From the IMG/VR virus record IMGVR_UViG_3300035454_001303, positions 18,187 through 82,186 of that record: 64,000 bases of DNA; one strand, given 5' to 3'. Origin of the DNA: a virus. Its lineage: Duplodnaviria; Caudoviricetes. The notes beneath the pieces were generated by a model. The model ran no database searches, had not been told where the DNA came from, and saw only the letters and a program-made list of their open reading frames with translations. The position numbers were made by a program, and so were the translations under genes. Positions 33,725 through 50,536 of this stretch are shown here, piece after piece (within the stretch, counting starts at the first letter, position 1; every line of letters starts with the position of its first letter).

Positions 33725-35124
33725 TTACAAAAGAAGAGGCAATCCAAAAATTTAAAGACATTCTGCTTGCGAAGGCGTCATGGAAAACCTTGTCGAAATC
33801 GCAGTTCGTCAATCACCTTGCCGTTTTCATGAGCTGGGCGCTGCGGGAAGCGTTGTGGAAGATCGAAAGGACCTTCCAGGAATACTTTCTGTCCACGGCC
33901 TTGAATGAAGCCAGTGTGCTGGCCCATGTGGAAGATCGAGAATACCTCCCGCGCAAGCGCACGCCGTCTTCGGGATCCGGCACGATCACGAACAACGGTA
34001 CGAGCGTTTTGTATTTGCCGGCATACCAGCCGTTTTCGTCTGATGCCGACCTCGATTATGTCACCGACCGGGCCTTGTCACTCGCCGCAGGTGAAGCGGC
34101 GGAAGTCGAATTTTCACAGATGGTCAAGGAAGAGATCGTTCACGAGGTTACGGAAGAGAAGCCGTTCTACGAGATCCTTTTCGATAAGGCCCTAACGGAG
34201 AAAATCCACGATTTCACGGTCCAAGTCGATTTGGGATACGGCTATGAAGAATGGGATTGCTCGCGGCTCTTCCAGAACGCCAACGAGGGCGATCATGTTT
34301 ACGATGAATTCTATACGCACGCCGGACAAACAGGAATCAGATTCGGGAATGACTACATCGGAACCATTCTTCCCGTTGGAACATCCGTGAAGGTCTCCCT
34401 GTGGTTGACTGATGGGGAAACCTATCTTGCAGAAGGGCAACCCCTGTACCCTGTTGGCGAGGTCCTGGATGCTTCGGGGCAGGTAGCCGATATGGAGGCC
34501 ATCACGACCGAGGCCATCACTGACGGTCAGGCAAAAGAGACCGTTTCGGAGATGCGACAGAACCTCCAATACTGGCCCATCTATAACGAAAAGCTGGTAT
34601 GGCGTGACGATTATGTCTTCTTCATCAAGAGAGCTGTGGCAAGCATCCTGTGGATCAACGTGTGGGGCGAAACAGAGGCCGAGGCGATCCACGGGCCACG
34701 ATTCGAGTTCATCAATAAAATCTTTGTGTCTTCCTATGCTGAAGACCGTCCGAATCTTGAAACGGAGGTCATGAGCGCCCTTTCCGATGTCCACATTCTG
34801 AACCGAAAATTCGAGTGGGTTGCGCCGTTGCTTTCCACGTTCCACCTGACCATCACGGGGAAGGTCCCCAGGACGGTAATCATATCCGATGTGCAGGCAG
34901 CCATTATTGAAGCTCTGACAGATAATTATGGAAAAGATTCCTCAAGCCGTCTGTCGGAGGTTCTTGTGAAGGACTTTTATCGGATCATCAACGCAACCGG
35001 ATATTTCTCCACAACCGGTGCCTATTTCAACGTGACCCATGCCGGGACGCTGGAGCCGACAGAACTAAACGAGATGGTTCACATCGACATGGATGCGACC
35101 ACGATTTCATTGAGCTACTTATGA
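33721..35124 (+). CDS. bplA: Baseplate J-like wedge protein, P1 BplA-like
   Basis: FLSTALNEASVLAHVEDREY.PRK, G.RFG...G, VW..DY.FFIK, VWGE. Confidence 0.85.
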   Translation: MITKEEAIQKFKDILLAKASWKTLSKSQFVNHLAVFMSWALREALWKIERTFQEYFLSTALNEASVLAHVEDREYLPRKRTPSSGSGTITNNGTSVLYLPAYQPFSSDADLDYVTDRALSLAAGEAAEVEFSQMVKEEIVHEVTEEKPFYEILFDKALTEKIHDFTVQVDLGYGYEEWDCSRLFQNANEGDHVYDEFYTHAGQTGIRFGNDYIGTILPVGTSVKVSLWLTDGETYLAEGQPLYPVGEVLDASGQVADMEAITTEAITDGQAKETVSEMRQNLQYWPIYNEKLVWRDDYVFFIKRAVASILWINVWGETEAEAIHGPRFEFINKIFVSSYAEDRPNLETEVMSALSDVHILNRKFEWVAPLLSTFHLTITGKVPRTVIISDVQAAIIEALTDNYGKDSSSRLSEVLVKDFYRIINATGYFSTTGAYFNVTHAGTLEPTELNEMVHIDMDATTISLSYL

Positions 35125-36653
35125 TCGACTGGCTGAAAAAAAGATTATCGCCCGTAAAGAGGGATTCCTCGCGATGGAGGGATCTCGCTGAAGCCATTCA
35201 GGGGTTTTGGGCGGAAAACTTTGACCCGAGCTATGACGTGCTCGCCGGTTTGCGGTCGATCTATACGGCTGACGATACGAATCAGAAGCGGATCGTTGTG
35301 GAGCTGGGCCATTATTTCGAAGATGGGATCTCCGACGAGAACATCCCGGTCAGCGTTGCAACCCGCAAGATGGAGCTTCACCAAAAGGAAACGAACGTTC
35401 CTCTTGTCCGGTCTATGGCGCGGATCGGCTTCGTCGCTGAATGGGCTCCCCTCTATGCCCCCAGGGGCGAGATTTATGGGACGGCATTTTATACGGAAGA
35501 CGAGCTTGAAGCGGCGGGCCTGGACATCAATGCGGAACTACTTCGCCTGGATGGGTCGTGGCATGTTGGCGACGACCCGGCTGTGCATCTGGCTTCCGAT
35601 GGCGTTTATCTGACATCTCGCGCGAAGATGGTCATTGATCTGTCAAGCGGGCGTGCACCCGAAATGATAGACGTGGCTCGCCGACGAATCATGCAGATCA
35701 AGCCGCTTCACATCGTTTTTGACGGCTTCAAGTATAAGATTTGGCTCGAAATATCGGCCATTCCGACCCACGAAATGCACCTGGCCATGACAAAAGTCGT
35801 TGCCCAACATTATCCCTGGTGCACGCCGAAGCTCAATGGGCTTTGGAAGATCGGTACGAACATCACCATCGCGCACCGGCACCTGAACGGATCATGGAAG
35901 CTGAACGGAGCGGCAGACCTTGGGTCCTATCAGATATCCGGGACGGTTTACCGGCAGTTACTCCAATGCACCATCACAAGCAGCATGGGACTCGCCAAGC
36001 ATATCGAAAGGCCGGATGCCTATTTCGTGAACCGGCTCAGCGAATCGCTCTTGAAGCTCAATGGCCTGTGGCATGTCGGCATGAACCGGGTTCTGATCCT
36101 GAGCGGAAAGCGAAAGCTCAGGAAATCAATTGATTTGCCGTCCATTCCATCGGTCGGATTCGGATCGGGAGAGGGATGGACCGTTCAGTATCCGGTCTCC
36201 CCAAGGAAGCTGGGAGTTCTTCCGGCCCTAGTTTCGTATAGACGGCTTGATGGAACGTGGCAAGTCGGTGAGCCTGTCAGGAGCGTAATCCTTGACGGTA
36301 CATGGAAGGTCCGGTCTCCGGGCATCAAGGCGGAATCGCGCCTGAAATTGGTAAAATTTCTTGGACACGCGGGGGTGTTTGGGAAGGTGGGGCGCTACAC
36401 GGCCCAGGTCGGCAACGGATGGTCTCGCAAACTTGACGGCATGTGGGGCGTTGGGGCCTATTGTGACGTTGACGGCACTTGGCGGCTCGATGGGTCAAAA
36501 CGGCTTGGCGCAATTCGCATCGGAAGATATTACCGCCGCCTCGACGGATCATGGAGGGTTGGGGAAGTGACGAAGCACCTGGATGGTTCGTGGCGCATAG
36601 GCCAGCCGGGACCGGTATGCGAATGCGAAATAAACATCAGAAAGGCGGCGTAA
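35121..36653 (+). CDS. P1 gp16-like baseplate wedge protein with [DN]GxW repeats
   Basis: N-terminal W....L.P.K..S..W.DLA...Q, KPLHIVFDG; ten [LV][DN]GxW repeats. Confidence 0.7.
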   Translation: MIDWLKKRLSPVKRDSSRWRDLAEAIQGFWAENFDPSYDVLAGLRSIYTADDTNQKRIVVELGHYFEDGISDENIPVSVATRKMELHQKETNVPLVRSMARIGFVAEWAPLYAPRGEIYGTAFYTEDELEAAGLDINAELLRLDGSWHVGDDPAVHLASDGVYLTSRAKMVIDLSSGRAPEMIDVARRRIMQIKPLHIVFDGFKYKIWLEISAIPTHEMHLAMTKVVAQHYPWCTPKLNGLWKIGTNITIAHRHLNGSWKLNGAADLGSYQISGTVYRQLLQCTITSSMGLAKHIERPDAYFVNRLSESLLKLNGLWHVGMNRVLILSGKRKLRKSIDLPSIPSVGFGSGEGWTVQYPVSPRKLGVLPALVSYRRLDGTWQVGEPVRSVILDGTWKVRSPGIKAESRLKLVKFLGHAGVFGKVGRYTAQVGNGWSRKLDGMWGVGAYCDVDGTWRLDGSKRLGAIRIGRYYRRLDGSWRVGEVTKHLDGSWRIGQPGPVCECEINIRKAA

Positions 36654-36665
36654 AGGAGAAGAGAA

Positions 36666-37046
36666 ATGTCAGAAGCAACGACTACAAACAGTTTCAGGCA
36701 GAGGTTGGCGCGGCACCATTATGACGGGACAGCACTCCCACAGGTGGCGCAAATGTCCTTCGGGGATGGCGGGCATAACCCGGACGGATCACCAAAGACC
36801 CCGAATGCGGCACAGACGGCCCTCGTTCATGAAGTGCTCAGGAAGAACCTGAGCGCGATCACGCAGGAAGATCTCTACTCCGTGACCGGGACGGGCATTG
36901 TCGCGGAGGCGGAACTTGTGGGCACCCATATTTCAGAGGCCGGCCTTTTGGATGCGTCAGGGAATCTTCTCGGCTTTAGGAACTTCGCACCGAAAATCAA
37001 GGAAGCCGATGAAACCTATGAAATCAAAATCAAATTGAAGTTTTAA
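36666..37046 (+). CDS. Tail collar/fibre attachment protein (P1 gpR position)
   Basis: MSFGDGG...L..EV.RK...E.GL.DA.GNL...RNFAPKIK...YEIKIKL. Confidence 0.7.
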   Translation: MSEATTTNSFRQRLARHHYDGTALPQVAQMSFGDGGHNPDGSPKTPNAAQTALVHEVLRKNLSAITQEDLYSVTGTGIVAEAELVGTHISEAGLLDASGNLLGFRNFAPKIKEADETYEIKIKLKF

Positions 37047-37070
37047 CCCGAAGGAAAGGAGGACATTCAA

Positions 37071-37976
37071 ATGGCATTACCACATGCAGCAATTACGCCC
37101 ATACCGAACAATGAGCCCGATGCCGTTCCCAGTCTTTGGAATGATCGTTATCTGGAAATTGACGAGAATTTTGAAAACTTGGATGAACGGGCGGCGGCCC
37201 TGGAAAGCGAGGTGCAGGCTGCGCGAGGCGGTCAGGCGTCTATGGATCAGCGCCTTGATCAGATCGAAACCAACGTGGAGGGGCTTGATCCCGAGTTTCA
37301 GAACAACCTGATTGCGGCTGTTCTGGCGGCCACGGACTTGGCAGCCCTGGCAAATAAGGAACTGGACCGGTTCCGGCGCGTCCGTATTCAGGAAGGGGAA
37401 ACGACTATCTATAATCGGGGAATCATTTCCGGTTGCGCGATTACACGAAAGGCAGCGGATGTAAGAATCCTGAGCCTGGCCCTTGGGAGTCTGTTTATCC
37501 ACGGGCGCTCATACAGCGTGCCAGCCGATGCCGACGCCACTTCCGTACCGCCGAACCCCGGAGCCAGTTCCGCAACCTGCTATGTCTATCTCTACATCGA
37601 TGAGACTGGCACGGTCGAATGCCAATGCACGGCGCTGAATGCGGCGGCACCATCCACAGGCCTTGTAGTCTACACGATTACGGTTCCCGCTGGCAGCACG
37701 AATGACGGAGACGCCTTCACAATCACGGATGCACGGCGTGTATGTACGGGCTGGCCCAATGTGTTCGTGTCTCCCATCTATGCTTCGATTGCCCTGCCCT
37801 ATGTCCTGCCCGACGCGAATTATGCAGTGCATCTGGATGTGGCGTCCTGCGAAGGCGGGCGGCAGCAGATCGGGGCGCTGGAAGTCGAGGACCGGCTGAC
37901 GAACGGATTTAAAATTTACCTGGCGGGGGCGGCGGATGCAGTGAAGGTGCGCTACCACGTCCAGCGGATGATTTAA
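37071..37976 (+). CDS. Tail fibre stem/adaptor protein
   Basis: N-terminal coiled coil, C-terminal small beta domain; position between the collar gene and the DGR target. Confidence 0.6.
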   Translation: MALPHAAITPIPNNEPDAVPSLWNDRYLEIDENFENLDERAAALESEVQAARGGQASMDQRLDQIETNVEGLDPEFQNNLIAAVLAATDLAALANKELDRFRRVRIQEGETTIYNRGIISGCAITRKAADVRILSLALGSLFIHGRSYSVPADADATSVPPNPGASSATCYVYLYIDETGTVECQCTALNAAAPSTGLVVYTITVPAGSTNDGDAFTITDARRVCTGWPNVFVSPIYASIALPYVLPDANYAVHLDVASCEGGRQQIGALEVEDRLTNGFKIYLAGAADAVKVRYHVQRMI

Positions 37977-37990
37977 AGGGGGGTGAGCAC

Positions 37991-38371
37991 ATGCAGGTTG
38001 AAGTCTTGGGAAACGGCCCTTTGGTCGAATACGCGGTGAACGGAAGCGTCGTGAAGATCGGCGGCGACGGCGGAATTGAAATCGATTGCGCTGCAATTCA
38101 GGTAGACGCGGCGATTGCGGTGGATATTTGCCGCGATGTAGCGGGAAACCTGGTGCAGGGCGTGAGCGAGGGCGTGTCCTATGTGGCGTCTCTCGTTGTG
38201 CCGCCGAAGGAAAAGAGCGAACAGCCAAAAGTCGAGGACGGAGAACCCGTTTTGGATGACAACGGCAACCAGGTTTATGAGGTTGTCGTCGCTCCCTTGA
38301 ACATGAACAAGGTGCGGCTGTCCTTATGGCCCTTTGTGAACCCGGTTCCGGTATCGGAACGCGAAATCTGA
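37991..38371 (+). CDS. Tail-associated hypothetical protein upstream of the DGR target
   Basis: 126 aa with SD; the type of gene usually seen next to Mtd-like genes (from recall). Confidence 0.5.
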   Translation: MQVEVLGNGPLVEYAVNGSVVKIGGDGGIEIDCAAIQVDAAIAVDICRDVAGNLVQGVSEGVSYVASLVVPPKEKSEQPKVEDGEPVLDDNGNQVYEVVVAPLNMNKVRLSLWPFVNPVPVSEREI

Positions 38372-38401
38372 AAAAACAAAAAAGAATAGGAGGTTTAAGC
38401 A

Positions 38402-39418
38402 ATGCTGATTTTCAATAAAGATCCTTTGAGGGCTTCGGTAGAGGCGGCAACTGGCGGCAGGGTTACGGTGCTCTATGACGATAAGGGGTATCCGTCCTAT
38501 ATGTGCGTGATCCCGAAATTCCTCGTGGAAACCATCGACGCGGATCTCGGGGCAGGTGTCCATCCGGCCTTCATCGTGAACGGTGTGGAAAAGTCCGAGA
38601 TCTTCATCGGCCAGTTCAAGGCCAATGTTCTGGACGGTCGCGCCCTCTCTTTGCCCGGCTACGATCCGACCGCGAGTGTCAATTTTGACACGGCGAAGGG
38701 CTACTGCACGGCCAAGGGGACCGGCTGGCATCTCATGTCAAACTGGGAGGCCGCAGCGCTGGCCCTCTACTGCATCAAGAACGGGCAGCCCCGTGGCAAT
38801 ACCGATTACGGCAGACACCACACATCGACTCACGAGTGCGGTCGTCGGCAGGACGGCGTTGCTCCCGGTACCGCCTCCGGCACGGCACGGACCCTGAACG
38901 GTTCCGGCCCTGCTTCCTGGCGTCATGATGGCACCCTTGCCGGAGTGGACGGCCTGTGCGGAAACATTTGGGAATGGGTTGACGGGATGAAACTTGTCAA
39001 CGGTAAATTTTATTTCCCCGATGACAACTACTTTACCCAGGCTGAAGGGTCCTGGAAGGACCAGGGCGTGATTATGGCCGAAGACACGGGCGACAAGCTA
39101 GGTGTGGCCGGTACGGATACGTTACACGCCTCTGGCGGCGTCGGGTTCGGGGCATGGAAAGGTCTCACCAGAACCACGGCCTATGCCGCCCTTTCCGACA
39201 CGATCAAGCGGCGTTTCATGCAGGCCATGATCGACCCGGCGTTCAACAGTAGCGACCCTGTAGGGTATTTCTATTTCGACACCGATGGCGAGCGCGTTCC
39301 GCTCCGCTTTGGGGGCTGGGGCTACGGTGCCGATGCCGGGGTCGCTGCGTTGTACCTCAGCAACGCGCGCGCGGTCGTGGTCACGACCCTCGGGTTCCGC
39401 CTCGCCTATATCGGTTGA
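38402..39418 (+). CDS. DGR target protein, FGE-subtype C-type lectin fold (Mtd-like receptor-binding protein)
   Basis: HPAFIVNG, GWHLMSNWE, GLCGNIWEWVDG, C-terminal VR ending GFRL. Confidence 0.9.
   Translation: MLIFNKDPLRASVEAATGGRVTVLYDDKGYPSYMCVIPKFLVETIDADLGAGVHPAFIVNGVEKSEIFIGQFKANVLDGRALSLPGYDPTASVNFDTAKGYCTAKGTGWHLMSNWEAAALALYCIKNGQPRGNTDYGRHHTSTHECGRRQDGVAPGTASGTARTLNGSGPASWRHDGTLAGVDGLCGNIWEWVDGMKLVNGKFYFPDDNYFTQAEGSWKDQGVIMAEDTGDKLGVAGTDTLHASGGVGFGAWKGLTRTTAYAALSDTIKRRFMQAMIDPAFNSSDPVGYFYFDTDGERVPLRFGGWGYGADAGVAALYLSNARAVVVTTLGFRLAYIG
39291..39407 (+). repeat. DGR variable repeat (VR)
   Basis: 117 nt aligned without gaps to 39864-39980; 17 mismatches, all opposite TR adenines. Confidence 0.95.
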
Positions 39419-39437
39419 GCGTAGTCTGTAAATCTGT

Positions 39438-39459
39438 GGGGCGGGCGACAGCCCGCCCC
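39438..39459 (+). promoter_or_regulatory. DGR target-recognition hairpin/cruciform downstream of the VR
   Basis: GGGGCGGGC-GACA-GCCCGCCCC, perfect 9-bp stem with a 4-nt loop, 20 nt after the target stop. Confidence 0.8.
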
Positions 39460-39485
39460 CTTAAACCCCATTCACGGGAAACGGA

Positions 39486-39851
39486 ATGACGAAAAATCTG
39501 ATTATCTACGAAAAGACTCTGGAAATGATCGAATACGGCACTATCGCGCTCCGTCAATTCCCCCGATATGAGAAATTTGTACTGGCGGCCATGATTCGGC
39601 AACAGATGTATGAAGTTCTGAAGCTGATCGTGGAGACCAATAAACGGACATACCGGAAAACAGCGCTGACCGAACTGGATATTGCCCATGAAACGCTCCG
39701 GCATTTGGTGGACCTCTCCTATCGGCGGTTGAAGTATCTCGATCACAAGAAATACACCCTGTGGATGGAGAAGATCAACGAAGTCGGTAAATTGTTGGGA
39801 GGGTGGATTCGCTCCCAGCGAGAAGGGGCACAGCCTGCAAAGAATGTTTAA
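39486..39851 (+). CDS. avd: DGR accessory variability determinant (four-helix bundle)
   Basis: FPRYEKFVLA..IR...LD.....LR.L....Y...I.EVGKLLGGWI; located between VR and TR. Confidence 0.9.
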   Translation: MTKNLIIYEKTLEMIEYGTIALRQFPRYEKFVLAAMIRQQMYEVLKLIVETNKRTYRKTALTELDIAHETLRHLVDLSYRRLKYLDHKKYTLWMEKINEVGKLLGGWIRSQREGAQPAKNV

Positions 39852-39863
39852 TGAAGCTCTGTT

Positions 39864-39980
39864 AGCGCGTTCCGATCCGCTTTGGGAACTGGAACAACGG
39901 TGCCAATGCCGGGGTCGCTGCGTTGAACCTCAACAACGCGCGCACGAACGTGAACACGAACATCGGGTTCCGCCTCGACT
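39864..39980 (+). ncRNA. DGR template repeat (TR)
   Basis: AAC-rich copy of the VR (26 adenines) between avd and RT. Confidence 0.93.
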
Positions 39981-40132
39981 TTGAATATGCCAGAAGGCGC
40001 CTGCTTACGGGCAGAGGCCCAGTGCAATTTCATAGGGAGGCTGTGTCCTTCCCGAAAGGGAAGATAGCCCAAAAGCCTTCATGTCTGAGTAGCAATGCCG
40101 AAACGTCATGAAGGCACTTTTAAAAGGAAAAG

Positions 40133-41161
40133 ATGAAACGTTATCATCATTTATATTCAAGAATCTGCGACATGGATAATCTTGAGGCGGCATGGAAGTA
40201 CGTCCGTCTTGGAAAACGGTACGATAAGGAGGTTCTGCGCTTCGGATACTACACCCTGCAAAACGTCATCCAACTTCATAATGAACTGACCTGGAAGAAC
40301 TATCGAATCGGTCAGTATCGCGAATTTATTATTAAGGATCCGAAAGAGCGCCTCATCCAATACTTACCCCTGCGCGACCGCATCGTTCAGCAGGCCCTTC
40401 ACCAGGTGATCGAGCCCATCTTTGACAAGGGCTTCATTGATGACTCCTATGCCTGTCGTAAAGGCAAGGGCACGCACCGTGCCATGAAGCGACTGCAATA
40501 CTTTTTGAATGCAGCTCGCGAAAAATGGCCTGGGAAGGAAATTTATTATCTCCATTGTGACATTCGTAAATACTTTCCCCATATCGATCACGACGTTCTT
40601 TATGGGCTCATGAGCCGGAAGATCAAGTGCGCCGACACGCTAAAGCTCATCAGGGCCATTATTGATAGCAGTACCTCAGATCCGGGGCTTCCCATAGGCA
40701 GCCTCTTCAGTCAGCTTTCCGCCAATGTGTATTTGAACGTCCTGGATCAGTTCGCCAAGCACGACCTTCGCGAGCGCTATTACCTTCGCTACATGGATAA
40801 CTTCATCATCGTTCATCACGACAAAAAGCATTTGCAACGGGTGAAGGATGAGATTCAAGGGCTTCTTAATAATCGATTGCGCCTGGAATTCAATCCGAAG
40901 GGGACCCGGATCGACAAAGTGGCGGGAGGAATCGAATTCGTCGGCTATCGGGTCTATGTAGACCGGGTCAAGATCAAAAAGGCAAGCATCAAGAGAATGA
41001 AGAAGCGCCTGCGGGCCATGCGGGTTATGTACCGGGAAGGAAGGGCGTCGATCTGGAACATCAGCCAGCGCATACGGTCCTGGCTGGGGCATTGTTGTCA
41101 TGCCGACGCAAAAGGGATCGCCGAAAGCGTTCTGTCCGGGGCAGTATTCACACGAGGATAA
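40133..41161 (+). CDS. DGR reverse transcriptase with non-canonical YMDN motif
   Basis: PLRDRIVQQA, DSYACRKGKG.H, CDIRKYF, GLPIGSLFSQ, RYMDNF, GIEFVGY. Confidence 0.93.
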   Translation: MKRYHHLYSRICDMDNLEAAWKYVRLGKRYDKEVLRFGYYTLQNVIQLHNELTWKNYRIGQYREFIIKDPKERLIQYLPLRDRIVQQALHQVIEPIFDKGFIDDSYACRKGKGTHRAMKRLQYFLNAAREKWPGKEIYYLHCDIRKYFPHIDHDVLYGLMSRKIKCADTLKLIRAIIDSSTSDPGLPIGSLFSQLSANVYLNVLDQFAKHDLRERYYLRYMDNFIIVHHDKKHLQRVKDEIQGLLNNRLRLEFNPKGTRIDKVAGGIEFVGYRVYVDRVKIKKASIKRMKKRLRAMRVMYREGRASIWNISQRIRSWLGHCCHADAKGIAESVLSGAVFTRG

Positions 41162-41176
41162 GGAAGGAGGTTTATC

Positions 41177-41770
41177 ATGATTCATATTGATTTTGAGAAG
41201 TTCAACAAAGCGGGCTTGAAGCCAATCCTGGATAAGTTCGAGAAGGCTGCCTTGCCAATTGCCAGCGTGGACGCGGACAATAAGGCAAAGCGCGAATCCG
41301 GCTTTCAGGTAAAGACGGCCATCATCAATTTTGAAAGCGGCCAAAAGTTGCAGGTGAAGGCCAAGGCCGGGGGATCGATCTTTCAGGTGAAGCTGAACAG
41401 CAAGGTCCTCGCCATCAAGTACGTTGACGACCTCGATAAGGCAATTCAGGAGGTCATCGATTATGTCAAGGAAAACGAGAAATCCTACCAAAAACAGAAG
41501 GAAAAGCAGCTTGCCCGGCAGAAGGTGAACGTTCCGAAGATCAAACCGGCAAATGTGTCCGTTTCGGAACAGATCACTCAATTCCAGACAGCCATTGATG
41601 AGACCAAGGCCGCTGATGACTCGCTGAATGAGCAGATCGCGGAAGCCGAAAACTCGAAAACCGAAAAAAGCACTGTCGTAACGACTCTCGAGACGGAGCT
41701 GAGCGGTCTGGTTGCGACGGGCGAGAATCTTCAGGCCGAATATGATCAATTGAAGGAGGTGGCAGCATGA
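41177..41770 (+). CDS. hdf: Hdf-like antirestriction/head protein
   Basis: IDFEKFNKAGLK...VKTA....GQ.L......G.I..VKLN; directly upstream of darA. Confidence 0.8.
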   Translation: MIHIDFEKFNKAGLKPILDKFEKAALPIASVDADNKAKRESGFQVKTAIINFESGQKLQVKAKAGGSIFQVKLNSKVLAIKYVDDLDKAIQEVIDYVKENEKSYQKQKEKQLARQKVNVPKIKPANVSVSEQITQFQTAIDETKAADDSLNEQIAEAENSKTEKSTVVTTLETELSGLVATGENLQAEYDQLKEVAA

Positions 41771-43911
41771 ATCCACTGACGGAAGGAAAAAGAATCAAGC
41801 TGGGTTATGACTACTTCGCCACGGGTTTTTCGGGGATTCAGCTTTCGGAAGCATATTACAGGCTGATTGCCGACAAGCAGCAAGAACGCCTCCTTTTCGA
41901 GACGGCGACCATTGACGAGGTTGACGAGGCTTATAACCCCTGTGACGAAAACGACCGGATGACGACCGAAGAACTTGTTTTAGAGGCTATCCGGATTCAG
42001 CGTTTCAATCGCACAGAATCCAAGATGACCGCCCTTGTGCGCGTCTTCAATGGGTATTTGAAGGAAAAGAACATTGAGGCCATGGCGCCGGTCATCGGAA
42101 TGCCGAAGAAATCGGGCCTCTTTGCGACCGTGACCGTGCAGATTCCTTTCAGCGACGGGCAGGTGGTAAGCATTATTTTCCACAGCCCCGACAACAACAA
42201 GATGAAGATCGCGGCGGATGATGAAATCATCGCTTTTCGGTGGCTCTTGAACAAGCGGGACATCACCCATGTGGTTTCTCCGGAAAACGATGCCGAAGTC
42301 AGCCTTCAGGAAATCGGGAAGCGAACGGCCCAGTTGGTTGAAAAGAACAGCGCCCGGTTCCAGGTCATGCAGAAGGAGCTTGTGGCGCAACGGAAGACAC
42401 TTGAAGAATTGAAGACTCAGGCCGATGAGGGGGTGAAGCATCACGATGAACTCATGGCCAAGCTGAAGGAGGGGCAGGATGCCATTGAAGCGATGGATAC
42501 GAAAATCGCCAACCTCCGCAGTCAGATTGAGAAGCAGAAGGCTTTCAATGACGACCTTCAAGGAAAAGTTGACGCTCTGAAGGCGAAGCAGGCCGGGAAT
42601 GACGGCAAGGCGACCGGGGGCGAGACCCCGAAAACCGAAGCGGAAATGAAGGCAGAACAAGAACGGACGGCCTATGAAGAGAAGCGGGCGGCACTGGGAA
42701 GTGAATTGACCGGGCGCGGATTCATAGATAACGGCATGGGCGGTGTCTGGAATAAAGAGGGATTCGGATATGTCCAGGCCAGTGGCGTGGATGGATACAG
42801 CATCGCGGTAGGTTTGGCCGATGGCAGCAAGAAGACGTTCTCTTCGGCCACCGTTGCCGGTTTCGACAAGCAGGCGACCAAGGCCCTGTCCATGATCGAC
42901 AAGAAGCTCAAAGCGGCTGAGATCAAGATTGACCCTGCCGTCTCAGCCCTTGATGCTACGAACGGCTTTGCGGAATTCCTCATGAAGCAGGACGAAGGCC
43001 ATGTCGAAGGGTACAGCCCGAAAGAAAGCGTTCTCAATATTGATGCGAGCGCCAAAAGCGAGGGCCTTGATGCGAAATGGTCTGAAGGGGATGATGGCGG
43101 AATGCCCGTTGCAGTCGGAACTTTCACCATCGCGGGAGGCAACCAGATCGGTGGCGTGCGGATCAGCCCGGACGGGAAGGCAATATTCTTCCTGAACGGT
43201 GAGAGATTCAGGGGTGATTACTACTTCGCAAGCGCCGACAACGAGACCCAGGACGCGGCAATGAAGGAACTCGCCGTCATTATCAAAGCAGCGAAAGAGA
43301 AGGAAGAGAGGGCCAAGCAGGTGGATGAAACAAACCGTCTTATTGAAGTCGGGAAAAATGCGGTACCGGGAGTTCGCCTTCAGGATGCGGAGGAAGCCGG
43401 GAAGCTATGGGAGATGAAAGGACGCGGCGAGTTGTCCGAGGAAGACTGGGGCAAATATGTCGAAGACCTTAAGGCGTCGAACAAGATTGCGAAATCCAAC
43501 GGGCCTCAAGCCCTCATTGGCTCAACTATGACCTCTGACGACGAAAAACGCATTCTTGCCGAGCTTGCCAACCTTGGAGAAGAGGAATTGACGCGCAGGC
43601 ATGAGGAAATTCGGGCCTATATGGAAGGTCCAGACTTCGAGGATCAAGACCCCGATTACAAGAAGTCCCTCCAAAACACCGAGTTCCTGCTGTTCACGGC
43701 AAAGAGCAACGTTCCGGATGAACCAGTTGCCGTGACCGTTCTCAACGACATCCTTGCCGGAAAATATGACGGCGACTCCACGAAGCTGGGAGAGGCCCTT
43801 GACCAGGCGGCTTCCGACCTGGAGAAGGATGGGAAGGCGGAACAATATGATGCTCTTCTGAATCAAGCAGCGGACTATCTGACGGAAATTCTGAAAAAGG
43901 AGGCGGCGTAA
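41767..43911 (+). CDS. darA: DarA (defence against restriction A)-like protein
   Basis: IPFSDGQVVSIIFHSPD...AF.WLLNKRDITH.V...EKNSARF; C-terminal LLNQAADYLTEIL. Confidence 0.88.
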   Translation: MNPLTEGKRIKLGYDYFATGFSGIQLSEAYYRLIADKQQERLLFETATIDEVDEAYNPCDENDRMTTEELVLEAIRIQRFNRTESKMTALVRVFNGYLKEKNIEAMAPVIGMPKKSGLFATVTVQIPFSDGQVVSIIFHSPDNNKMKIAADDEIIAFRWLLNKRDITHVVSPENDAEVSLQEIGKRTAQLVEKNSARFQVMQKELVAQRKTLEELKTQADEGVKHHDELMAKLKEGQDAIEAMDTKIANLRSQIEKQKAFNDDLQGKVDALKAKQAGNDGKATGGETPKTEAEMKAEQERTAYEEKRAALGSELTGRGFIDNGMGGVWNKEGFGYVQASGVDGYSIAVGLADGSKKTFSSATVAGFDKQATKALSMIDKKLKAAEIKIDPAVSALDATNGFAEFLMKQDEGHVEGYSPKESVLNIDASAKSEGLDAKWSEGDDGGMPVAVGTFTIAGGNQIGGVRISPDGKAIFFLNGERFRGDYYFASADNETQDAAMKELAVIIKAAKEKEERAKQVDETNRLIEVGKNAVPGVRLQDAEEAGKLWEMKGRGELSEEDWGKYVEDLKASNKIAKSNGPQALIGSTMTSDDEKRILAELANLGEEELTRRHEEIRAYMEGPDFEDQDPDYKKSLQNTEFLLFTAKSNVPDEPVAVTVLNDILAGKYDGDSTKLGEALDQAASDLEKDGKAEQYDALLNQAADYLTEILKKEAA

Positions 43912-44916
43912 ATGGCTCTATCATTCTCCGAAAAGCGATCCCTGCAGAAGGTGATCGCCACGAACCTTGCCAGCCTTCAGGCGGGCAACCTGTCCTTCCA
44001 GGACAAGCGGAAGTTTCAAAAAGAGATTCAGGACGCCTTTGCCAGACTGAAGGAGGCCGTTGAACTGAAGCCCGAGGCACAGAACCAAAAGCTCGCCGAT
44101 CTGATTGCCGGGAAATACAACAACGAGCCTCCCGAGGGATTTCTGAAGGTACTGAAGGAGATCGTTGAAGAGATCAACGACATTGAGCCGGTGAAGCCGC
44201 CCACGATTGCCTATATCGAAGTCAATCAGGACAAAGTGAATTCGATCATGGAAAGCGCCCTGGGTGAGGTATTTGGGAAACTGTGGGATAAAACGAAGGG
44301 ATTCCCTATTCCGATCATCGGAACATCCTCTTCGCAGCAAGCCACCAACGACGCCGTCAGGGTCAAGCCGCAGGACGGCGACTACGGGCCTCCAAAAAAA
44401 ATCAGTATCGACATCGATGACGATTTCTACGGCCCTACTTCTTTTCGTGCCGTGATCAGGGCCATCGAAGAGGCCCGGGCGGGAGACACGATTGAAATCA
44501 AGCTCAACTCCAACGGCGGAGATACCCAGGCGGCGCAAGCCATTTACGTGGCGCTCCTGAAAACGCTGGCGAAAACGAAAGCGATCATCATCAACGCCTA
44601 TTCTGCGGGGAGCATCGTCGCAATGGCCTGTGATGAGATCGAACCGACGCCCTTCTGTACCATGATGATTCACAACGCATCGACATTCAGTGGCGGGAAG
44701 CTCGGGGATCTGGCAGGGAAAGCGGCATTCCTGAATGATTACTTCGGGGAATGGTTCCAACAGCTTTACGCGGGGTTCCTTACCGAGGAAGAGCTGAAAG
44801 ACATCATCAAGGGCCAGGATTTCTGGTTGAAAGAACCTCAGATCAGGGAACGCCTGAAGAACTGGAAGCCGATCCGCCAAAGACTCCAAGAAAATGGAAC
44901 CATAAAGGCGGCCTGA
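43912..44916 (+). CDS. ddrA: DdrA-like N-domain fused to a ClpP-type serine protease
   Basis: N-part KLADLIAGKY....EGFL..L; C-part LNSNGG, AYSAGS, MMIHNAS, QDFWL (Ser-His-Asp). Confidence 0.75.
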   Translation: MALSFSEKRSLQKVIATNLASLQAGNLSFQDKRKFQKEIQDAFARLKEAVELKPEAQNQKLADLIAGKYNNEPPEGFLKVLKEIVEEINDIEPVKPPTIAYIEVNQDKVNSIMESALGEVFGKLWDKTKGFPIPIIGTSSSQQATNDAVRVKPQDGDYGPPKKISIDIDDDFYGPTSFRAVIRAIEEARAGDTIEIKLNSNGGDTQAAQAIYVALLKTLAKTKAIIINAYSAGSIVAMACDEIEPTPFCTMMIHNASTFSGGKLGDLAGKAAFLNDYFGEWFQQLYAGFLTEEELKDIIKGQDFWLKEPQIRERLKNWKPIRQRLQENGTIKAA

Positions 44917-44918
44917 AG

Positions 44919-47012
44919 ATGCCCATTCCGCTCATAAAGAAACTCGCCGAAGAAAATGGCATTGACCTTCCGGAGGCCGAAAAGCGCTGGGAGAAGGCAA
45001 AGAAAATTGCCGAGGAACAGGCTGGTCTTTCCGAAGCCGATGGAGAGGACTACTGGAAGTACGTTGTTGGCGTTTTCAAGAAGTCCATGGGTGTCGGTGA
45101 GGACAATGTTTTGGAAAGCGCAGACGTGCAGCCCTGGGACAAGGAAAGGTTGGCTGTGGCCTATCCCCAAAGAGTCAGGGAGGCAAGATCGTTTTCCGAT
45201 ATCCTTGTGATCTTCTCCGCCCTCTTTCCTTATGCCGTCGATAGCCGACTTTGGGAAGGAGAATATGACGCGGCCAAGAAGTTCCGGGTTCTTTTTGAAG
45301 AGTTCCAGACGGAAACCGATATGGAACTCAAATATGAGATTGCCCAGGAAATGGGGGATCTGGCGAACGCCAACAGGTTCAAGAGCGCTTTTGAGACGAT
45401 GGCCGGTCCGGGGCTTCGGTCCAGCGATCTGGTTATGTTCTCGAATTCGTCCATCGGCGGCTTTCTCCTAAAGAGGAACTGCGAAGACGGCGAACGAATG
45501 GCGGAGTCCATCATCCCCGGTTATGGGGAGAAGTTGAAGACCCGGAACGACATTCAGACGAGCATAGACCAGATCCAGAAGGAATATGATTTTTTGGTTG
45601 CCGACCAGGTGAAAAAGAAAAAAGACGAGATGGACGCCATCCGCAAGGATTGCGGTGCCCTCGATCTACAGACCAGGTCTGCGGCCATGAATGAAGAGCA
45701 TTGGAAATGGGTTGGACAGCATTCCAAAAACATACCTCCGTATGATTCGGAGGAATATGCCAAATGGAAGCAGGAACTTGATGACTACAACAAGGGGTAT
45801 GAAAAGCAGTTCCGTGCATTGATGGACAAATCCTATGAGCTGGAAGATCTTCACGTGAAGCCGGTCCGGGATAAGTGGAATGCCGAACTGAAGGAAGCGG
45901 GAGACAGGAAGGAAAAAGAAATTCATGTCCTGAAGATGGCCCAGCAAGAAATTGATGACATGGTGGGCGGGGCCATTATTGCCAAGATCATAGAAGTATC
46001 ACCCGTGTCGAAGGAAGAGGCCGATCAATGGGCAAAAACCCAAAGGATAAGCAAGTCGGCAATTCTTCGGCTGAAGAAGCAGGGCTATGAAGAGGGAGAT
46101 TTCCGCGAGCACATGGCTGAATTTTATCGGCTGACTGGCGGAAGGGTCGGAAAGGCTTTCATCGAAACCAAGGGAGACAAGAGGGCGAAAGCTGCCTTTT
46201 GGGATGGGACAATTTACATCGACGGGCGGTTCAAGAAACGAACCCTTTTCCACGAAATGGGTCATCTGCTTGAAAGGGAACCCAAACTCGAATCCATGGC
46301 CGAAGCCTTTCGCGATGGCAGGGCCAAGAAAGAAAGCGGAACCAGAACACTGCGAAGCATCACGAAGAATTCCGGCTATCGGTCAGACGAGATCGCTTAT
46401 ACCGATGACTTCTTCGATGCCTATATCGGAAAAGTTTATAGGTACAAGGCCACTGAGGTTCTTTCGATGGGAATGCAGATGTTTGGGGACCCCGGCGATG
46501 CCGCTTTTCTGGCCGGGCGTGATCCGCAGATGTTCAATATGATGGTGGGATTCATGGCTTCCAAGCCGACCGTCCGGGAACTATCAAAGAAAGAGAAGAT
46601 CCAGGAAGTAGCGGCGGATACGATGAATGAACGGGACACCCTTGAAAAATTCTATCAAGTGCTGGCGCGAAAGGCCAAGGATGATTCCTTTTGGGAAGGA
46701 AAGGGCTCGTTGATTTCGAGCCTCGAAGGATACGGCAGAGGGAAAGGAAGCGGAAAAACGATGGCCCTCTATTATTATCCGGGAGACCCGCAAGGACCTG
46801 GTTCGTATGCCCAGTCGAACTTTTTCAAGACCAGGCAGGCCGCTCGTAACTTTGCTTATCTGTATCTCTTGTATGTCCAAAAGGGGATCATAAGCGACCG
46901 AAACGAGGCATCCGTTCTGAGCTACCAGCTCGTCGCGTGCGCGCAGAGGAAGACAATGCCTCCGAAATTGAAAATAGACGATCTGCCAACGTTTATCGAG
47001 GACCTTAAATGA
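44919..47012 (+). CDS. Polyvalent virion protein with zincin metallopeptidase (DdrB C-half-like)
   Basis: Start ATG 44919 just after the ddrA stop; FYRLTGG, LFHEMGHLLE, ATEVLSMGMQ. Confidence 0.75.
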   Translation: MPIPLIKKLAEENGIDLPEAEKRWEKAKKIAEEQAGLSEADGEDYWKYVVGVFKKSMGVGEDNVLESADVQPWDKERLAVAYPQRVREARSFSDILVIFSALFPYAVDSRLWEGEYDAAKKFRVLFEEFQTETDMELKYEIAQEMGDLANANRFKSAFETMAGPGLRSSDLVMFSNSSIGGFLLKRNCEDGERMAESIIPGYGEKLKTRNDIQTSIDQIQKEYDFLVADQVKKKKDEMDAIRKDCGALDLQTRSAAMNEEHWKWVGQHSKNIPPYDSEEYAKWKQELDDYNKGYEKQFRALMDKSYELEDLHVKPVRDKWNAELKEAGDRKEKEIHVLKMAQQEIDDMVGGAIIAKIIEVSPVSKEEADQWAKTQRISKSAILRLKKQGYEEGDFREHMAEFYRLTGGRVGKAFIETKGDKRAKAAFWDGTIYIDGRFKKRTLFHEMGHLLEREPKLESMAEAFRDGRAKKESGTRTLRSITKNSGYRSDEIAYTDDFFDAYIGKVYRYKATEVLSMGMQMFGDPGDAAFLAGRDPQMFNMMVGFMASKPTVRELSKKEKIQEVAADTMNERDTLEKFYQVLARKAKDDSFWEGKGSLISSLEGYGRGKGSGKTMALYYYPGDPQGPGSYAQSNFFKTRQAARNFAYLYLLYVQKGIISDRNEASVLSYQLVACAQRKTMPPKLKIDDLPTFIEDLK

Positions 47013-50000
47013 ATGAAGATTTTAAATATCCGGTAACGCCGTATGTCTTCGATATAGAGACATCCACGGGCGATTTGCGGATTGAAATAGAGCCAACGGA
47101 GTTTGACGCTTCGTCATTATTCAAGATCAAGACCTATGGAGGGAACGAAGCGCCCGCGCTGGAGCTGAAGAGGTATTTCAACGATTTCGGCTTCGGCATG
47201 AGAGGGCATAGAATAGACCTGGAAGGCGATACAGCCTTCCCAACTGACATTTATCATGTGTTGACCATGAGCCAGACCTATCTGCAGGAAGGAAAGCAAA
47301 GGAGCATTCTTGATTTTCAGGTATCGGGATTTATTCCACCTGAAGGATATGCCGACTTGCTTCCCGATTCGGACGATGAAGAGGCGGCTGTGCTCGAATC
47401 CGCCCGAATCGACAGGGAGGCCCATAAAGCGGCGGCATCTCCAAAGAATAACCTCCCTGAGCCCACGGATGCCCAAAAAGAAGCCGGAAATTACCAAAAA
47501 GGCCATGTGAAAATTCTCGGCCTGGATATCGCCATTGAGAATCCTGCCGGGTCCGAACGATCAGGCGTCGACCGGGATGGAAAGAGATGGTCATCGCGCC
47601 TGAATCACCATTACGGCTACATCAAGGGAACAAAGGGGCGCGACAAAGACCACCTTGATGTTTTCCTTGGGCCGGATCCTGAAGATGAGGACAAGGTATT
47701 CATCGTCAACCAGACAGATCCGGCAACGGGTGCCTTCGATGAGCATAAGATCATGATGGGGTTCTCTTCGGAAGAAGAGGCCCGGGCCGCTTACCTGTCT
47801 AATTACGATGAGGAGTGGCAGGGACTTGGATCAATCTGCACCCTTTTCATTGATGAATTCAAGGATTGGCTGAAGAACGGAGACACGACGGTCCCCGTTG
47901 AACGTGGGGAGTCTGGATCGTATAAGCAGGACCCCTCATGGGTTGGAGTTGATCTGGACGGCACCCTTGCGCACTATGATAGCTGGGTTGGCGATGACCA
48001 TATCGGCGAGCCTATTCCCCTCATGATGACCTTTGTCAGGCATCTACTCAAAGAAGGGAAGCGGGTAAAAATCTTTACCGCTCGCGCCTCCGACCCGGAG
48101 AAAGTTGTTCCTGTGAAGGAATGGCTTGAAAAGCATGGCCTTGGAGATCTCGAAGTGACGAACATCAAAGATCACAATATGACCATGCTGTACGACGACC
48201 GAGCGGCAAAGGTCATTGCCAATATGGGGGTGATTCTCGAGAAGGCGCGCGAACAAGCGATCCTTGAACGAGGGGAAGATTTCCGGGGAGCGGTCCAAGG
48301 AGCACTTTCCTTTGATGATATCGAGAGCGTATTTGCGGCGACATTTGGCCCCATCGTGGTCAAGAGGTTCCTCTTCGGGGAAATTTCGGAGCTGGAAAAC
48401 CTGATAAGGTCAATGCGTGCCAAGATTGCGAAGGTTGCGGGCGGCGATGTCATTGAATCAGGCGAAAACGGGATGGAAATGGGCGAAAAAACAACCGCCT
48501 ATCTGAACGACAACACGCCAGTTGAACTTCAATATGCTGTGATCGAAGCGGATCGGCTGATTACATCTCATACGGACGAAATGTCCCTCAATGCTGACTT
48601 CTCCCAAGATCTTCAACCCCGTGACCGCTCCCGGGAGGGCATGAAGTTCCAGGTTGAACAGATGGCCGGAAAGCTCAATCCGGAACGGCTGGGAGAGTCC
48701 ACAAGCGTTTCGACGGGCGCTCCGATCATAGGTCGGGATCTGACAGTTGAATCGGGAAACGGAAGAACGATAGCCATACGAAAAGCCTATGCCATGGGGG
48801 ACAAGGGGCAGGAATATAAGCAATGGCTCTTGGATAATTCCGAACGGTTCGGGATTTCCTTTATAGCTGTGGGAAAGATGGATAGGCCAGTTCTTGTCCG
48901 CATACGCCTCACGGAGATTGACCGTGCCGAATTTGCGCGGAAAGCGAATGAAGACGAGATCGCGCAAATGGCACCTTCCGAGCTGGCAAGGGCCGATGCC
49001 GCCAAATTGACAGATGACGACATCGCTCTCTTTCAGCCGTCCGAGGATGGGAATATTGCCGCCACGACAAACAGGGCCTTCATTACCAGGTTCTTTGAGA
49101 AGATGGGCGCCACCGCGTCGACCGGGTACATGACGAAGGATGGAGGATACACAAAGCAGCTCGTTGACCGGATTCAAGCCGCTATATTCCAGAAGGCGTA
49201 CCAGGATGACAACCTTTTGGCCCTCATGGCCGAAGAATCGGACCCTAAAATCAAGAACATCTTGAGCGCAATGACCATTGCGGCAGGCGAGTTTTCGAGA
49301 GCCAAGGCGATTGACCCCACCCTTATGGGGATAGACATCCCCCGGCATGTTATCGAAGCGGCGAAGCTGATCAAAAAGTCGCGAGAAGATAACCAGGCCA
49401 TCGAAGAGGCTCTTGCGCAGGGCGGCCTATTTGAAGACATTTCCGAAGACACGAAGAGCATCACCCTGTTTATCGACAAGAACATCAGGTCTGCAAGACG
49501 GATCGGGGCAGTTCTCAAAGAGGCTGCACGAATCCTGCGGAAGATCCTGATTGACGAGAAAGAGCCGAAGCTGATCGACACCGGGGCCGAACTTCCTACT
49601 CCCGCAAAGATCATTGACCTTGCTATTGAGAAAGAAAAGTCCATGAACGCAGGCGGCGGGAATCTCTTTGAGGGGGCCGCTGAATTCGACTGGAGAGGGG
49701 CTGTCAACGGCGCGCTGTCGATTGAGGAAATCTTCTATATTTTTGAAAGGATATTCCCTCTGGCAACGAAAATGGTGGAAGTTCATAAGGAGCCGTGGGA
49801 AATGACGATAGCTGAATTTTGGGAAAAGCATCCCGAAATTCTATCGGAACCTCAAGCCTACGCCATCCATTTCACGGACATCCAGGACGCGATAAAGGCA
49901 GGGAAGTTCATCCCCATAGAAGTCCTGAATGAATATCGGAAAATTCTTCCATCCAAAGCACAGGTCATAAGGGCTGTACGCAACTTCGCCGGCAAGCTCA

Positions 50001-50536
50001 TAGGAAGAATTTCAGAACCTTATGACGGGACCGAGGAAGGCATGTATCGCGCCGGCCAAAGATTAGAAGAGAGAATGTGGCAGGAATTCCCCGATGCGTC
50101 CGGGATCAACAGCATGACGGGGGCCACCGATCTTGACGGAAACCCGAAGTGGGCCATATCGCCGAACCTTAAGCATATCGCTGAATTGGGAACGGACCAG
50201 GCAAGTTACATTTGGGGCGACATAGACGCTTTCAAGCGCGGGGAAACGCGAAAGGCAAAGCAGATCCAAAATGACGTGAAAGAACAGACAATCGTTGATT
50301 TCGATAATGTCTGGAAGCTGCCCCTGGATACCGTAGTGCAGATTGAATACCAGGGGAAACCTTGGCGAAAGGCGCTTCTGTCCGATATGGAGGCCGGCGT
50401 TATCTATTATGAGAACTTGAGGGGCGGTGGATGGCAGAAAAAGCCCATAGCTCCGCAGCACTTTAGACAATTTATCAGCATGACAAAAGAAAAAGACTAC
50501 AGAATTATTGTATTAGATAAAGGGGGTTTTAAATGA
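47009..50536 (+). CDS. ddrB: Polyvalent protein: InPase domain, HAD phosphatase, DdrB-type ParB domain and others
   Basis: EAGNYQKGH...YGYIKGT.G.DKDHLDVF...FDEHK.M.G; GVDLDGTLA...FTAR; LQPRDRSR...GAPII...VESGNGRT. Confidence 0.8.
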   Translation: MNEDFKYPVTPYVFDIETSTGDLRIEIEPTEFDASSLFKIKTYGGNEAPALELKRYFNDFGFGMRGHRIDLEGDTAFPTDIYHVLTMSQTYLQEGKQRSILDFQVSGFIPPEGYADLLPDSDDEEAAVLESARIDREAHKAAASPKNNLPEPTDAQKEAGNYQKGHVKILGLDIAIENPAGSERSGVDRDGKRWSSRLNHHYGYIKGTKGRDKDHLDVFLGPDPEDEDKVFIVNQTDPATGAFDEHKIMMGFSSEEEARAAYLSNYDEEWQGLGSICTLFIDEFKDWLKNGDTTVPVERGESGSYKQDPSWVGVDLDGTLAHYDSWVGDDHIGEPIPLMMTFVRHLLKEGKRVKIFTARASDPEKVVPVKEWLEKHGLGDLEVTNIKDHNMTMLYDDRAAKVIANMGVILEKAREQAILERGEDFRGAVQGALSFDDIESVFAATFGPIVVKRFLFGEISELENLIRSMRAKIAKVAGGDVIESGENGMEMGEKTTAYLNDNTPVELQYAVIEADRLITSHTDEMSLNADFSQDLQPRDRSREGMKFQVEQMAGKLNPERLGESTSVSTGAPIIGRDLTVESGNGRTIAIRKAYAMGDKGQEYKQWLLDNSERFGISFIAVGKMDRPVLVRIRLTEIDRAEFARKANEDEIAQMAPSELARADAAKLTDDDIALFQPSEDGNIAATTNRAFITRFFEKMGATASTGYMTKDGGYTKQLVDRIQAAIFQKAYQDDNLLALMAEESDPKIKNILSAMTIAAGEFSRAKAIDPTLMGIDIPRHVIEAAKLIKKSREDNQAIEEALAQGGLFEDISEDTKSITLFIDKNIRSARRIGAVLKEAARILRKILIDEKEPKLIDTGAELPTPAKIIDLAIEKEKSMNAGGGNLFEGAAEFDWRGAVNGALSIEEIFYIFERIFPLATKMVEVHKEPWEMTIAEFWEKHPEILSEPQAYAIHFTDIQDAIKAGKFIPIEVLNEYRKILPSKAQVIRAVRNFAGKLIGRISEPYDGTEEGMYRAGQRLEERMWQEFPDASGINSMTGATDLDGNPKWAISPNLKHIAELGTDQASYIWGDIDAFKRGETRKAKQIQNDVKEQTIVDFDNVWKLPLDTVVQIEYQGKPWRKALLSDMEAGVIYYENLRGGGWQKKPIAPQHFRQFISMTKEKDYRIIVLDKGGFK

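Follow-up and report, generated by a model that had tools for sequence, protein, structure and literature searches.

The tail-fibre module of the virus recorded as IMGVR_UViG_3300035454_001303 contains a diversity-generating retroelement (DGR) of the VHML/TaqVP lineage that acts on two target genes, here termed T1 and T2. The window analysed comprises 64,000 nucleotides (nt) of this record (record positions 18,187-82,186) and is drawn from a genome of 82 kb that is ~91% complete; coordinates without a prefix are window positions, and those referring to L007 or G000:C1 are positions in the whole genome. The element is a complete and active DGR carried by a temperate phage with virion and Dar genes distantly homologous to those of P1, and the T1 protein is probably the distal antireceptor of the tail fibre. 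The components of the cassette, in the order in which they occur, are as follows.

38402..39418, plus strand: T1 target gene, 338 amino acids (aa), TaqVP/VHML-type variable protein with a C-type-lectin fold of the FGE (formylglycine-generating enzyme) subtype (phrog_2889, 2.5e-108; 5VF4)
39291..39407, plus strand: variable repeat VR1, encoding T1 residues 297-336 of 338 (alignment to the template repeat; turnover between sister phages and variants)
39390..39404, plus strand: GC-rich invariant 3' end of the VR, TCGGGTTCCGCCTCG, resembling an initiation of mutagenic homing (IMH) site (shared with the template repeat at 39963-39977, with divergence just after; also ends VR2)
39438..39459, plus strand: target-recognition hairpin/cruciform, GGGGCGGGC-GACA-GCCCGCCCC, with a 9-bp GC stem and the loop GACA (DNA fold)
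39486..39851, plus strand: avd, accessory variability determinant, 121 aa (PF22296, 9.6e-27; NF033474 DivGenRetAVD)
39864..39980, plus strand: template repeat (TR) with 26 adenines (alignment; identical in sister phage L002)
39979..40116, plus strand: structured spacer RNA between the TR and the reverse transcriptase (RT) gene, Rfam RT-14 (RF02921), 138 nt (50.2 bits against a gathering score of 48.1, full-length model)
40133..41161, plus strand: DGR reverse transcriptase, 342 aa (RVT_1, 8.8e-19; IGSLFSQ, an IGxxxSQ motif)

The TR and VR1 align without gaps over 117 nt and differ at 17 positions, all of them opposite TR adenines (17 of 26), as was proposed in an initial annotation made from the sequence alone. 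The homology ends abruptly on either side of the repeats, and the signal is far beyond chance. All 17 mismatches fall at codon position 1 or 2 of the open reading frame (ORF) 38402-39418. The figure of 4^26, or 4.5e15, possible nucleotide variants given in the initial annotation is arithmetically right; read in the T1 frame, the TR contains 15 adenine-bearing (variable) codons, ten of which are AAY (Asn), and these specify 5.9e14 protein combinations, with mutation to a stop codon impossible in all 15. When the 82 kb genome was searched with the TR pattern, in which A stands for any base, the only matches were VR1, the TR itself and one further VR, described below.

The GC hairpin, the avd gene and the RT named in the initial annotation were likewise recovered, by DNA folding, by profile matches above cut-off and by RT motifs, respectively. 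The hairpin begins 30 nt past VR1, and an identical copy follows VR2. Published rules for phage DGR hairpins specify a GC stem of 7-10 bp, a 5'-GRNA loop and a distance of 4-34 bp from the VR (PMC3240598), and the structure at 39438-39459 agrees with them through its 9-bp GC stem, GACA loop and 30 nt spacing. The Avd protein scored 104 bits with NF033474 (cut-off 80) and 94 bits with PF22296 (cut-off 40). Of eight related cassettes, five (L009:9585-9723, L013:7786-7925, L018:9561-9698, L036:9586-9735 and L044:8534-8679) likewise have the RT-14 family between TR and RT; it thus behaves as the spacer RNA of this DGR lineage, which it probably is. By analogy with BPP-1, RT-Avd is presumed to bind the DGR RNA through this spacer, which would also prime the synthesis of cDNA. 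RT-14 spans the interval from the 3' end of the TR to the start of the RT gene in cassettes with YMDN and with YMDD RTs alike.

Homology to BPP-1 suggests how the components would act together. A transcript carrying the TR and the RT-14-type spacer would be bound by the RT-Avd complex and reverse transcribed with misincorporation opposite template adenines. The resulting cDNA would replace the VR where the GC-rich IMH-like end and the GC hairpin with its GRNA loop mark the site, a mark carried by two genes, T1, the last gene of the fibre module, and T2. In the target, 15 codons on the predicted binding face of the lectin fold would be randomised, giving ~6e14 proteins, none of them truncated by a stop.

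Sequence comparisons between closely related phages provide direct evidence for repeated mutagenic homing in nature at both targets. Over 15.5 kb the contig L002, from a sister phage, matches the window at 99.8% identity, with 19 substitutions; 15 of these lie inside the 117-nt VR1, 14 of them at TR-adenine columns. Outside VR1 the two phages are separated by four substitutions and one 3-nt indel in ~15.4 kb, and their TR, avd and RT sequences are identical. Within a 90%-identity protein cluster there are five distinct full-length T1 alleles, from different samples. Their differences affect 7-13 of the 15 predicted codons, against only 1-3 residues elsewhere. The T2 protein of the sister phage displays ten residue differences, all within VR2 (two VR2 alleles), showing that T2 is also being rewritten. 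These comparisons extend the initial annotation, which had argued for a genuine DGR, by demonstrating that the element is active. L008 and L009, considered as a second sister pair, proved identical in sequence and were set aside as uninformative.

The T1 family profile matched TaqVP (5VF4) over its full length with an E value of 4.6e-103. The AlphaFold2 model of T1 (pLDDT 87, pTM 0.90) superimposes on 5VF4 with a Foldseek TM score of 0.85 at 38% identity; the Foldseek list comprises FGE-type lectin folds, including Mtd and TvpA, which rank lower than 5VF4. The profile match in combination with the confident model confirms the C-type-lectin fold predicted for the target in the initial annotation, and VR1 constitutes the C-terminal part of this fold. 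The family is large, with >1,100 relatives, and 299 IMG/VR contigs encode a member. Full-length homologues are found in the deposited phages VHML, VP585, Pseudomonas phage Bise, Klebsiella KPN phages, BalMu-1 and Pseudoalteromonas ACA1/ACA2.

The best PDB match of the RT is 8ub7 (E 1e-57, full length), which we take to be the BPP-1 bRT; against the group II intron RT model the protein scored below cut-off. The SQ motif is present in all 151 related DGR-type RT representatives. The catalytic box (codons 40775-40786) reads YMDN where the 8ub7 alignment shows YMDD. Among the 151 DGR-type RTs the box is YxDD in 146 and YMDN in four.

The search of the whole genome for other VRs, suggested in the initial annotation, identified a single additional site, VR2, which lies in a full-length paralogue of T1 outside the window.

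L007:7710-8693 (genome G000:C1), minus strand: T2 target gene, 47% identical to T1
genome 7721-7837, minus strand: VR2 (whole-genome TR-pattern search)

Over 114 nt (L007:7721-7834) VR2 differs from the TR at 17 positions, every one of them a TR A site. Its 3' flank is identical to that of VR1 over 58 nt, including the stop codon and hairpin, and it has the same IMH-like end. T1 and T2 are collinear over their full length, with a highly conserved N-terminal region of ~40 residues. T2 is located ~50 kb from T1 in a leftward early/DNA-metabolism operon, where it sits not with tail genes but with genes of the helicase, RdgC-like, radical-SAM and C5-methylase types. Non-adjacent targets of phage DGRs within one prophage have been documented previously (PMC5758913), and the same two-target design with one TR is displayed by G004, an unrelated complete phage of 90.5 kb. 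Stand-alone copies of the T2 type recur in G004 and in L123. In G004 the cassette VR (L036:8934-9044) has 7/7 mismatches at A sites and the remote VR 11/12, and the two share an identical hairpin flank of ~65 nt; the remote copy (L097:9095-10060), which resembles T2 more closely than T1, lies near a large terminase gene.

The genes that flank the cassette define the phage backbone. To the left of the slot the P1 order pmgC-tub-pmgB-sit-pmgA-bplA-16 is conserved, as revealed by tblastn to P1, and to the right the order hdf-darA-ddrB is kept. The genes immediately adjoining the slot are these.

35121..36653, plus strand: gene 16 homologue (baseplate/tail-tube protein), left flank, 510 aa (tblastn to P1, 25% identity; phrog_2015)
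41177-41770, plus strand: hdf homologue, right flank (phrog_1620, Hdf-like, 7e-33; 35% identity to P1 Hdf)
41767-43911, plus strand: darA homologue, start of the Dar antirestriction operon (DarA_N, 3.3e-28; 29% identity to P1 DarA)

Amino-acid identities to the P1 proteins are 42% for pmgC, 34% for tub, 29% for pmgB, 37% for pmgA, 30% for bplA, 25% for gene 16, 35% for hdf, 29% for darA and 39% for ddrB. In 23 of 24 records BplA matched P1-like phages, at ~30% identity. The genome encodes a sheath protein, and the tail is therefore contractile; together with the collinear P1-type genes this bears out the contractile P1-type tail of the initial annotation, as well as its placement of the cassette between the gene 16/R-position genes and hdf-darA. 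The equivalent interval in P1 is R-S-U-U'-Sv'-cin-lydCAB, that is, the S/U/cin interval, whereas the slot here is occupied by the R-position gene, ORF301, ORF126, T1, avd, the TR and the RT. None of the slot genes has similarity to P1 in BLAST searches, which covered R, S, U and cin, and no PF00239 resolvase/invertase was found across the 82 kb genome (~91% complete). The proposal that host-range switching by inversion had been replaced by retro-hypermutation is thus partly sustained: the cassette does lie in the S/U/cin interval of a phage in which no invertase was found. Any replacement may, however, have run in either direction, and the whole fibre module differs from that of P1, not just the device that generates variation.

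A megablast of 15 kb against deposited phages returned no match, indicating that there is no close cultured relative, and a literature search for DGRs in P1-like phages found no paper, which is not proof of absence. A tyrosine recombinase/integrase is encoded at genome 979-1467, so the phage is P1-type in its virion and Dar modules and not demonstrably so in its lifestyle. The closest P1-type relative is integrated in the 5.5 Mb chromosome of a Syntrophorhabdaceae metagenome-assembled genome (OY762209.1). On these grounds the phage is best described as a carrier of P1-type virion and Dar modules, which falls short of a fully P1-like phage.

The flanking genes have some features of their own. 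The gene 16 homologue comprises 510 aa, compared with 278 aa in P1; the aligned part is residues 4-249, and the C-terminal ~260 residues are an extension adjoining the fibre module. The 334-aa protein encoded after darA (43912-44916) has a weak DdrA-like N-terminus (phrog_1855) and a ClpP/head-maturation-protease-like domain, whereas P1 DdrA is a small separate protein. The sister phage L002 lacks ~3.6 kb at 46680-50246, with a 14-nt overlap at the junction. This deletion removes most of a 1175-aa DdrB-like gene (47009-50536), leaving a product of 678 aa, and shows that the injected-protein (Dar) region varies between near-identical phages.

Between gene 16 and T1 lie three further genes of the fibre module.

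36666..37046, plus strand: R-position gene, 126 aa, a tail-fibre N-terminal (baseplate-attachment) domain as a separate polypeptide (PF12571, 1.3e-9; phrog_1780)
37071..37976, plus strand: ORF301, fibre/receptor-binding-protein-like (AlphaFold2 model, pLDDT 82; BFVD matches)
37991..38371, plus strand: ORF126, between ORF301 and T1 (phrog_8734, 1.1e-20)

The R-position gene is conserved at 51-97% identity in 30 related loci, and its product is analogous to the 'tail fiber hub attachment subunit' of ACA1. In the model of ORF301, residues 20-105 form a helical segment that resembles a coiled coil, and two beta-rich domains come after it. The protein has 45 BFVD matches (E<1e-3) that bear the names Receptor Binding Protein, H-type lectin, tail collar or minor tail protein; Foldseek against the PDB gave only weak matches, none at E<1e-3. 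Of 153 testable copies of T1-type genes, 124 have ORF301 directly upstream, and in 93 of 120 avd follows. ORF126, which is present in 46 of 85 related loci and hit only unnamed viral clusters in the protein atlas search, may be a fibre assembly or adaptor protein. Apparent ORF126-T1 fusions in L041, L048 and L074, which could have served as Rosetta-stone evidence, were rejected, as translation reveals an in-frame stop between the two parts.

The module comprising the fibre-base gene, ORF301, ORF126, target, avd, TR and RT is a mobile cassette and is not confined to this backbone. It also occurs on P2-type backbones, where the four-gene set and avd/RT follow Baseplate_J and gpI, on other backbones, and in phages that have been cultured. 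Given the module on P2-type backbones and in VHML and ACA1, retro-hypermutation in a phage with a contractile tail is no novelty. Conversely, the close P1-type relative L003 (= L098, OY762209.1) retains the fibre module and its target, which is the last gene of the tail module, and lacks avd, TR and RT, demonstrating that the DGR can be present or absent on the same fibre. No DGR-type RT was found in the L003 genome. The VR-equivalent of L003 differs from the window TR at A and non-A sites alike, and at L003:10890-11100 the hairpin stem is preserved by two compensatory C-G to T-A changes.

Among the closest characterized systems are the DGRs of Vibrio phage VHML and Pseudoalteromonas phages ACA1-ACA2. 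Their target is a full-length homologue of T1 (36-39% identity), the order target-avd-TR-RT is the same, the cassette follows the baseplate genes and occupies the tail-fibre slot, a small separate protein carries the N-terminal, baseplate-binding part of the fibre, and VR differences are concentrated between near-identical phages (PMC10612066). They differ in having a P2-type backbone with a contractile tail, in contrast to the P1-type backbone described here (bplA, pmgA, 16, hdf and darA). In addition, in the present system ORF301 and ORF126 separate the target from the attachment protein, another target exists at a remote site, the TR is not fused to the RT ORF, and the RT has the YMDN box. 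TaqVP, from a Thermus aquaticus prophage, belongs to the same family over its full length and has the target-avd-TR-RT layout, although it is ~45 residues longer and derives from another host phylum and phage backbone. With the prototype DGR, that of Bordetella phage BPP-1 (Mtd-Avd-TR-bRT), the element shares the signature of mutagenic retrohoming, Avd, the GC-rich IMH-like VR end, a GC hairpin whose loop is of the GRNA type, and a variable C-type-lectin face carried by a protein associated with the tail fibre; BPP-1, however, is podovirus-like and has one target. The Cin system of P1 resembles it in occupying the same interval of a homologous virion backbone and in its presumed purpose, the variation of distal fibre specificity. 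In contrast to the phage studied here, which has no slot-gene homology and no invertase, P1 alternates between two preset fibres as against ~1e14 generated variants, and it is a plasmid prophage, while a tyrosine integrase is encoded here and a relative is integrated in a chromosome.

T1 is probably a virion antireceptor, a view that draws on gene context and on published mass spectrometry (MS) of ACA1. In the cultured phage ACA1 the homologue is annotated 'antireceptor' and is preceded by a hub-attachment subunit that is split off from the fibre; MS of virion preparations recovered peptides of the antireceptor (PMC10612066). The PF12571 gene and the receptor-binding-protein-like ORF301 that precede T1, recurrently and on several backbones, support a location at the fibre tip. 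T1 would most likely form the distal, receptor-binding part (the 'antireceptor') of a short fibre assembled from individual polypeptides, namely the 36666-37046 protein, ORF301 and ORF126. The DGR would then allow host range to vary continuously, whereas in P1 inversion by Cin switches between two fixed fibre ends.

Several observations weigh against the interpretation that an active DGR diversifies a virion antireceptor. Loss of the second aspartate in the catalytic box is, by analogy with other RTs, expected to impair catalysis. T1 itself has no significant FGE-sulfatase match in Pfam and likewise no significant family in NCBIfam, so that its assignment rests on the PDB profile, the PHROG and the fold; PF03781 is carried by many of its relatives. 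T2 is on the opposite strand and surrounded by DNA-metabolism genes, an unusual setting for a structural gene. The solved TaqVP protein is described as monomeric and as consisting of one domain, with none for fibre attachment or trimerisation (PMC6328139). The ACA1 MS signal derives from the prophage variant and was more abundant than the major capsid protein, the preparation contained some cellular contamination, and the authors say that the story may be incomplete (PMC10612066). It is highly improbable, however, that the DGR is a decaying relic in which the YMDN RT is inactive and the VR differences are old polymorphism shuffled by recombination. Such decay would be compatible with the non-canonical box and with the one or two non-adenine changes inside the VRs. 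Against it, YMDN is kept in 37 of the 38 closest RT homologues, down to 57% identity, which argues that the box is under selection, and L009, a second cassette of the YMDN clade, has 13 of 13 TR/VR mismatches at A only. Furthermore, A sites have been changed in both VR1 and VR2 between near-identical genomes in which TR, avd and RT are unchanged, and one 90% cluster holds five distinct VR1 alleles. Clade conservation and VR turnover thus suggest that the YMDN RT is functional, and YMDN as the mark of a dead RT was rejected on these grounds. A literature search on YMDN in DGRs found no paper mentioning the variant, which is not proof of absence.

A separate question is whether T1 and T2 are receptor-binding proteins of the virion at all. 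They could instead be soluble, intracellular or lysogen-expressed binders with a lectin fold that travel beside the fibre genes, with suggested roles in superinfection exclusion, defence or counter-defence, or host manipulation. The monomeric TaqVP, devoid of a fibre-docking domain, fits such an explanation, as do the abundance of the ACA1 prophage variant, the T1 sequence, in which neither a signal peptide nor fibre-like repeats are visible, and its model, a single globular fold. T2, which stands alone in an early/DNA-metabolism operon and yet is actively diversified, and the stand-alone copies in G004 and L123 point in the same direction. We nonetheless regard this explanation as unlikely, since T1-type genes are tightly and recurrently linked to fibre-base and receptor-binding-protein-like genes; whether the backbone is P1-type, P2-type or another, these genes share a strand and are separated by only a few tens of bases. 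The DGR-less relative, moreover, keeps its target as the last gene of the tail module. The depositors' labels, 'antireceptor' in ACA1 and 'putative virion structural protein' in phiARM81mr, also speak for a virion protein. It is possible, if doubtful, that T1 is an accessory or alternative adhesin and that ORF301, which has a lectin-like head of its own, is the primary receptor-binding protein. T1 and T2 might then be interchangeable tips that dock on ORF301, perhaps via ORF126, giving each virion a fixed and a variable specificity. The C-terminal domains of ORF301 do resemble receptor-binding-protein heads and H-type lectins, the conserved N-terminal region and collinearity of T1 and T2 are compatible with one docking site, and cassettes that lack ORF126 exist, as in G004, where the target follows ORF301 directly. 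However, the position of T2 in an early operon argues against its co-expression with late genes, and the conserved N-terminus may be only the core of the fold. A third arrangement, quite unlikely in our judgement, divides the two targets: T1 would be a late, fibre-associated antireceptor and T2 an early, non-virion hypervariable binder, with the YMDN RT active and its altered metal site contributing to mutagenesis. If so, T2 could act, for example, as an intracellular or lysogen-expressed binder in superinfection exclusion or counter-defence, and would belong to a recurrent stand-alone 'T2-type' subfamily that includes the G004 and L123 copies.

These findings leave the established picture of DGRs unchanged; VHML and ACA1 are already documented cases in which a DGR diversifies a lectin antireceptor encoded in the fibre slot of a phage with a contractile tail. 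The present element extends the known VHML/TaqVP-type cassette to a P1-type virion backbone, in uncultured temperate phages that probably infect Desulfobacterota, and shows the cassette as a portable fibre-tip module that different myovirus lineages carry after their baseplate genes. Comparison of sister genomes and of alleles affords unusually direct evidence that both a local target and one 50 kb distant are rewritten in nature. The apparently active RT clade with the YMDN box and the diversified paralogue in an early operon offer leads for the biochemistry and biology of DGRs. Finally, the location of the cassette at the same position as the recombinase-based switch of P1 provides a natural comparison of two solutions to one problem.

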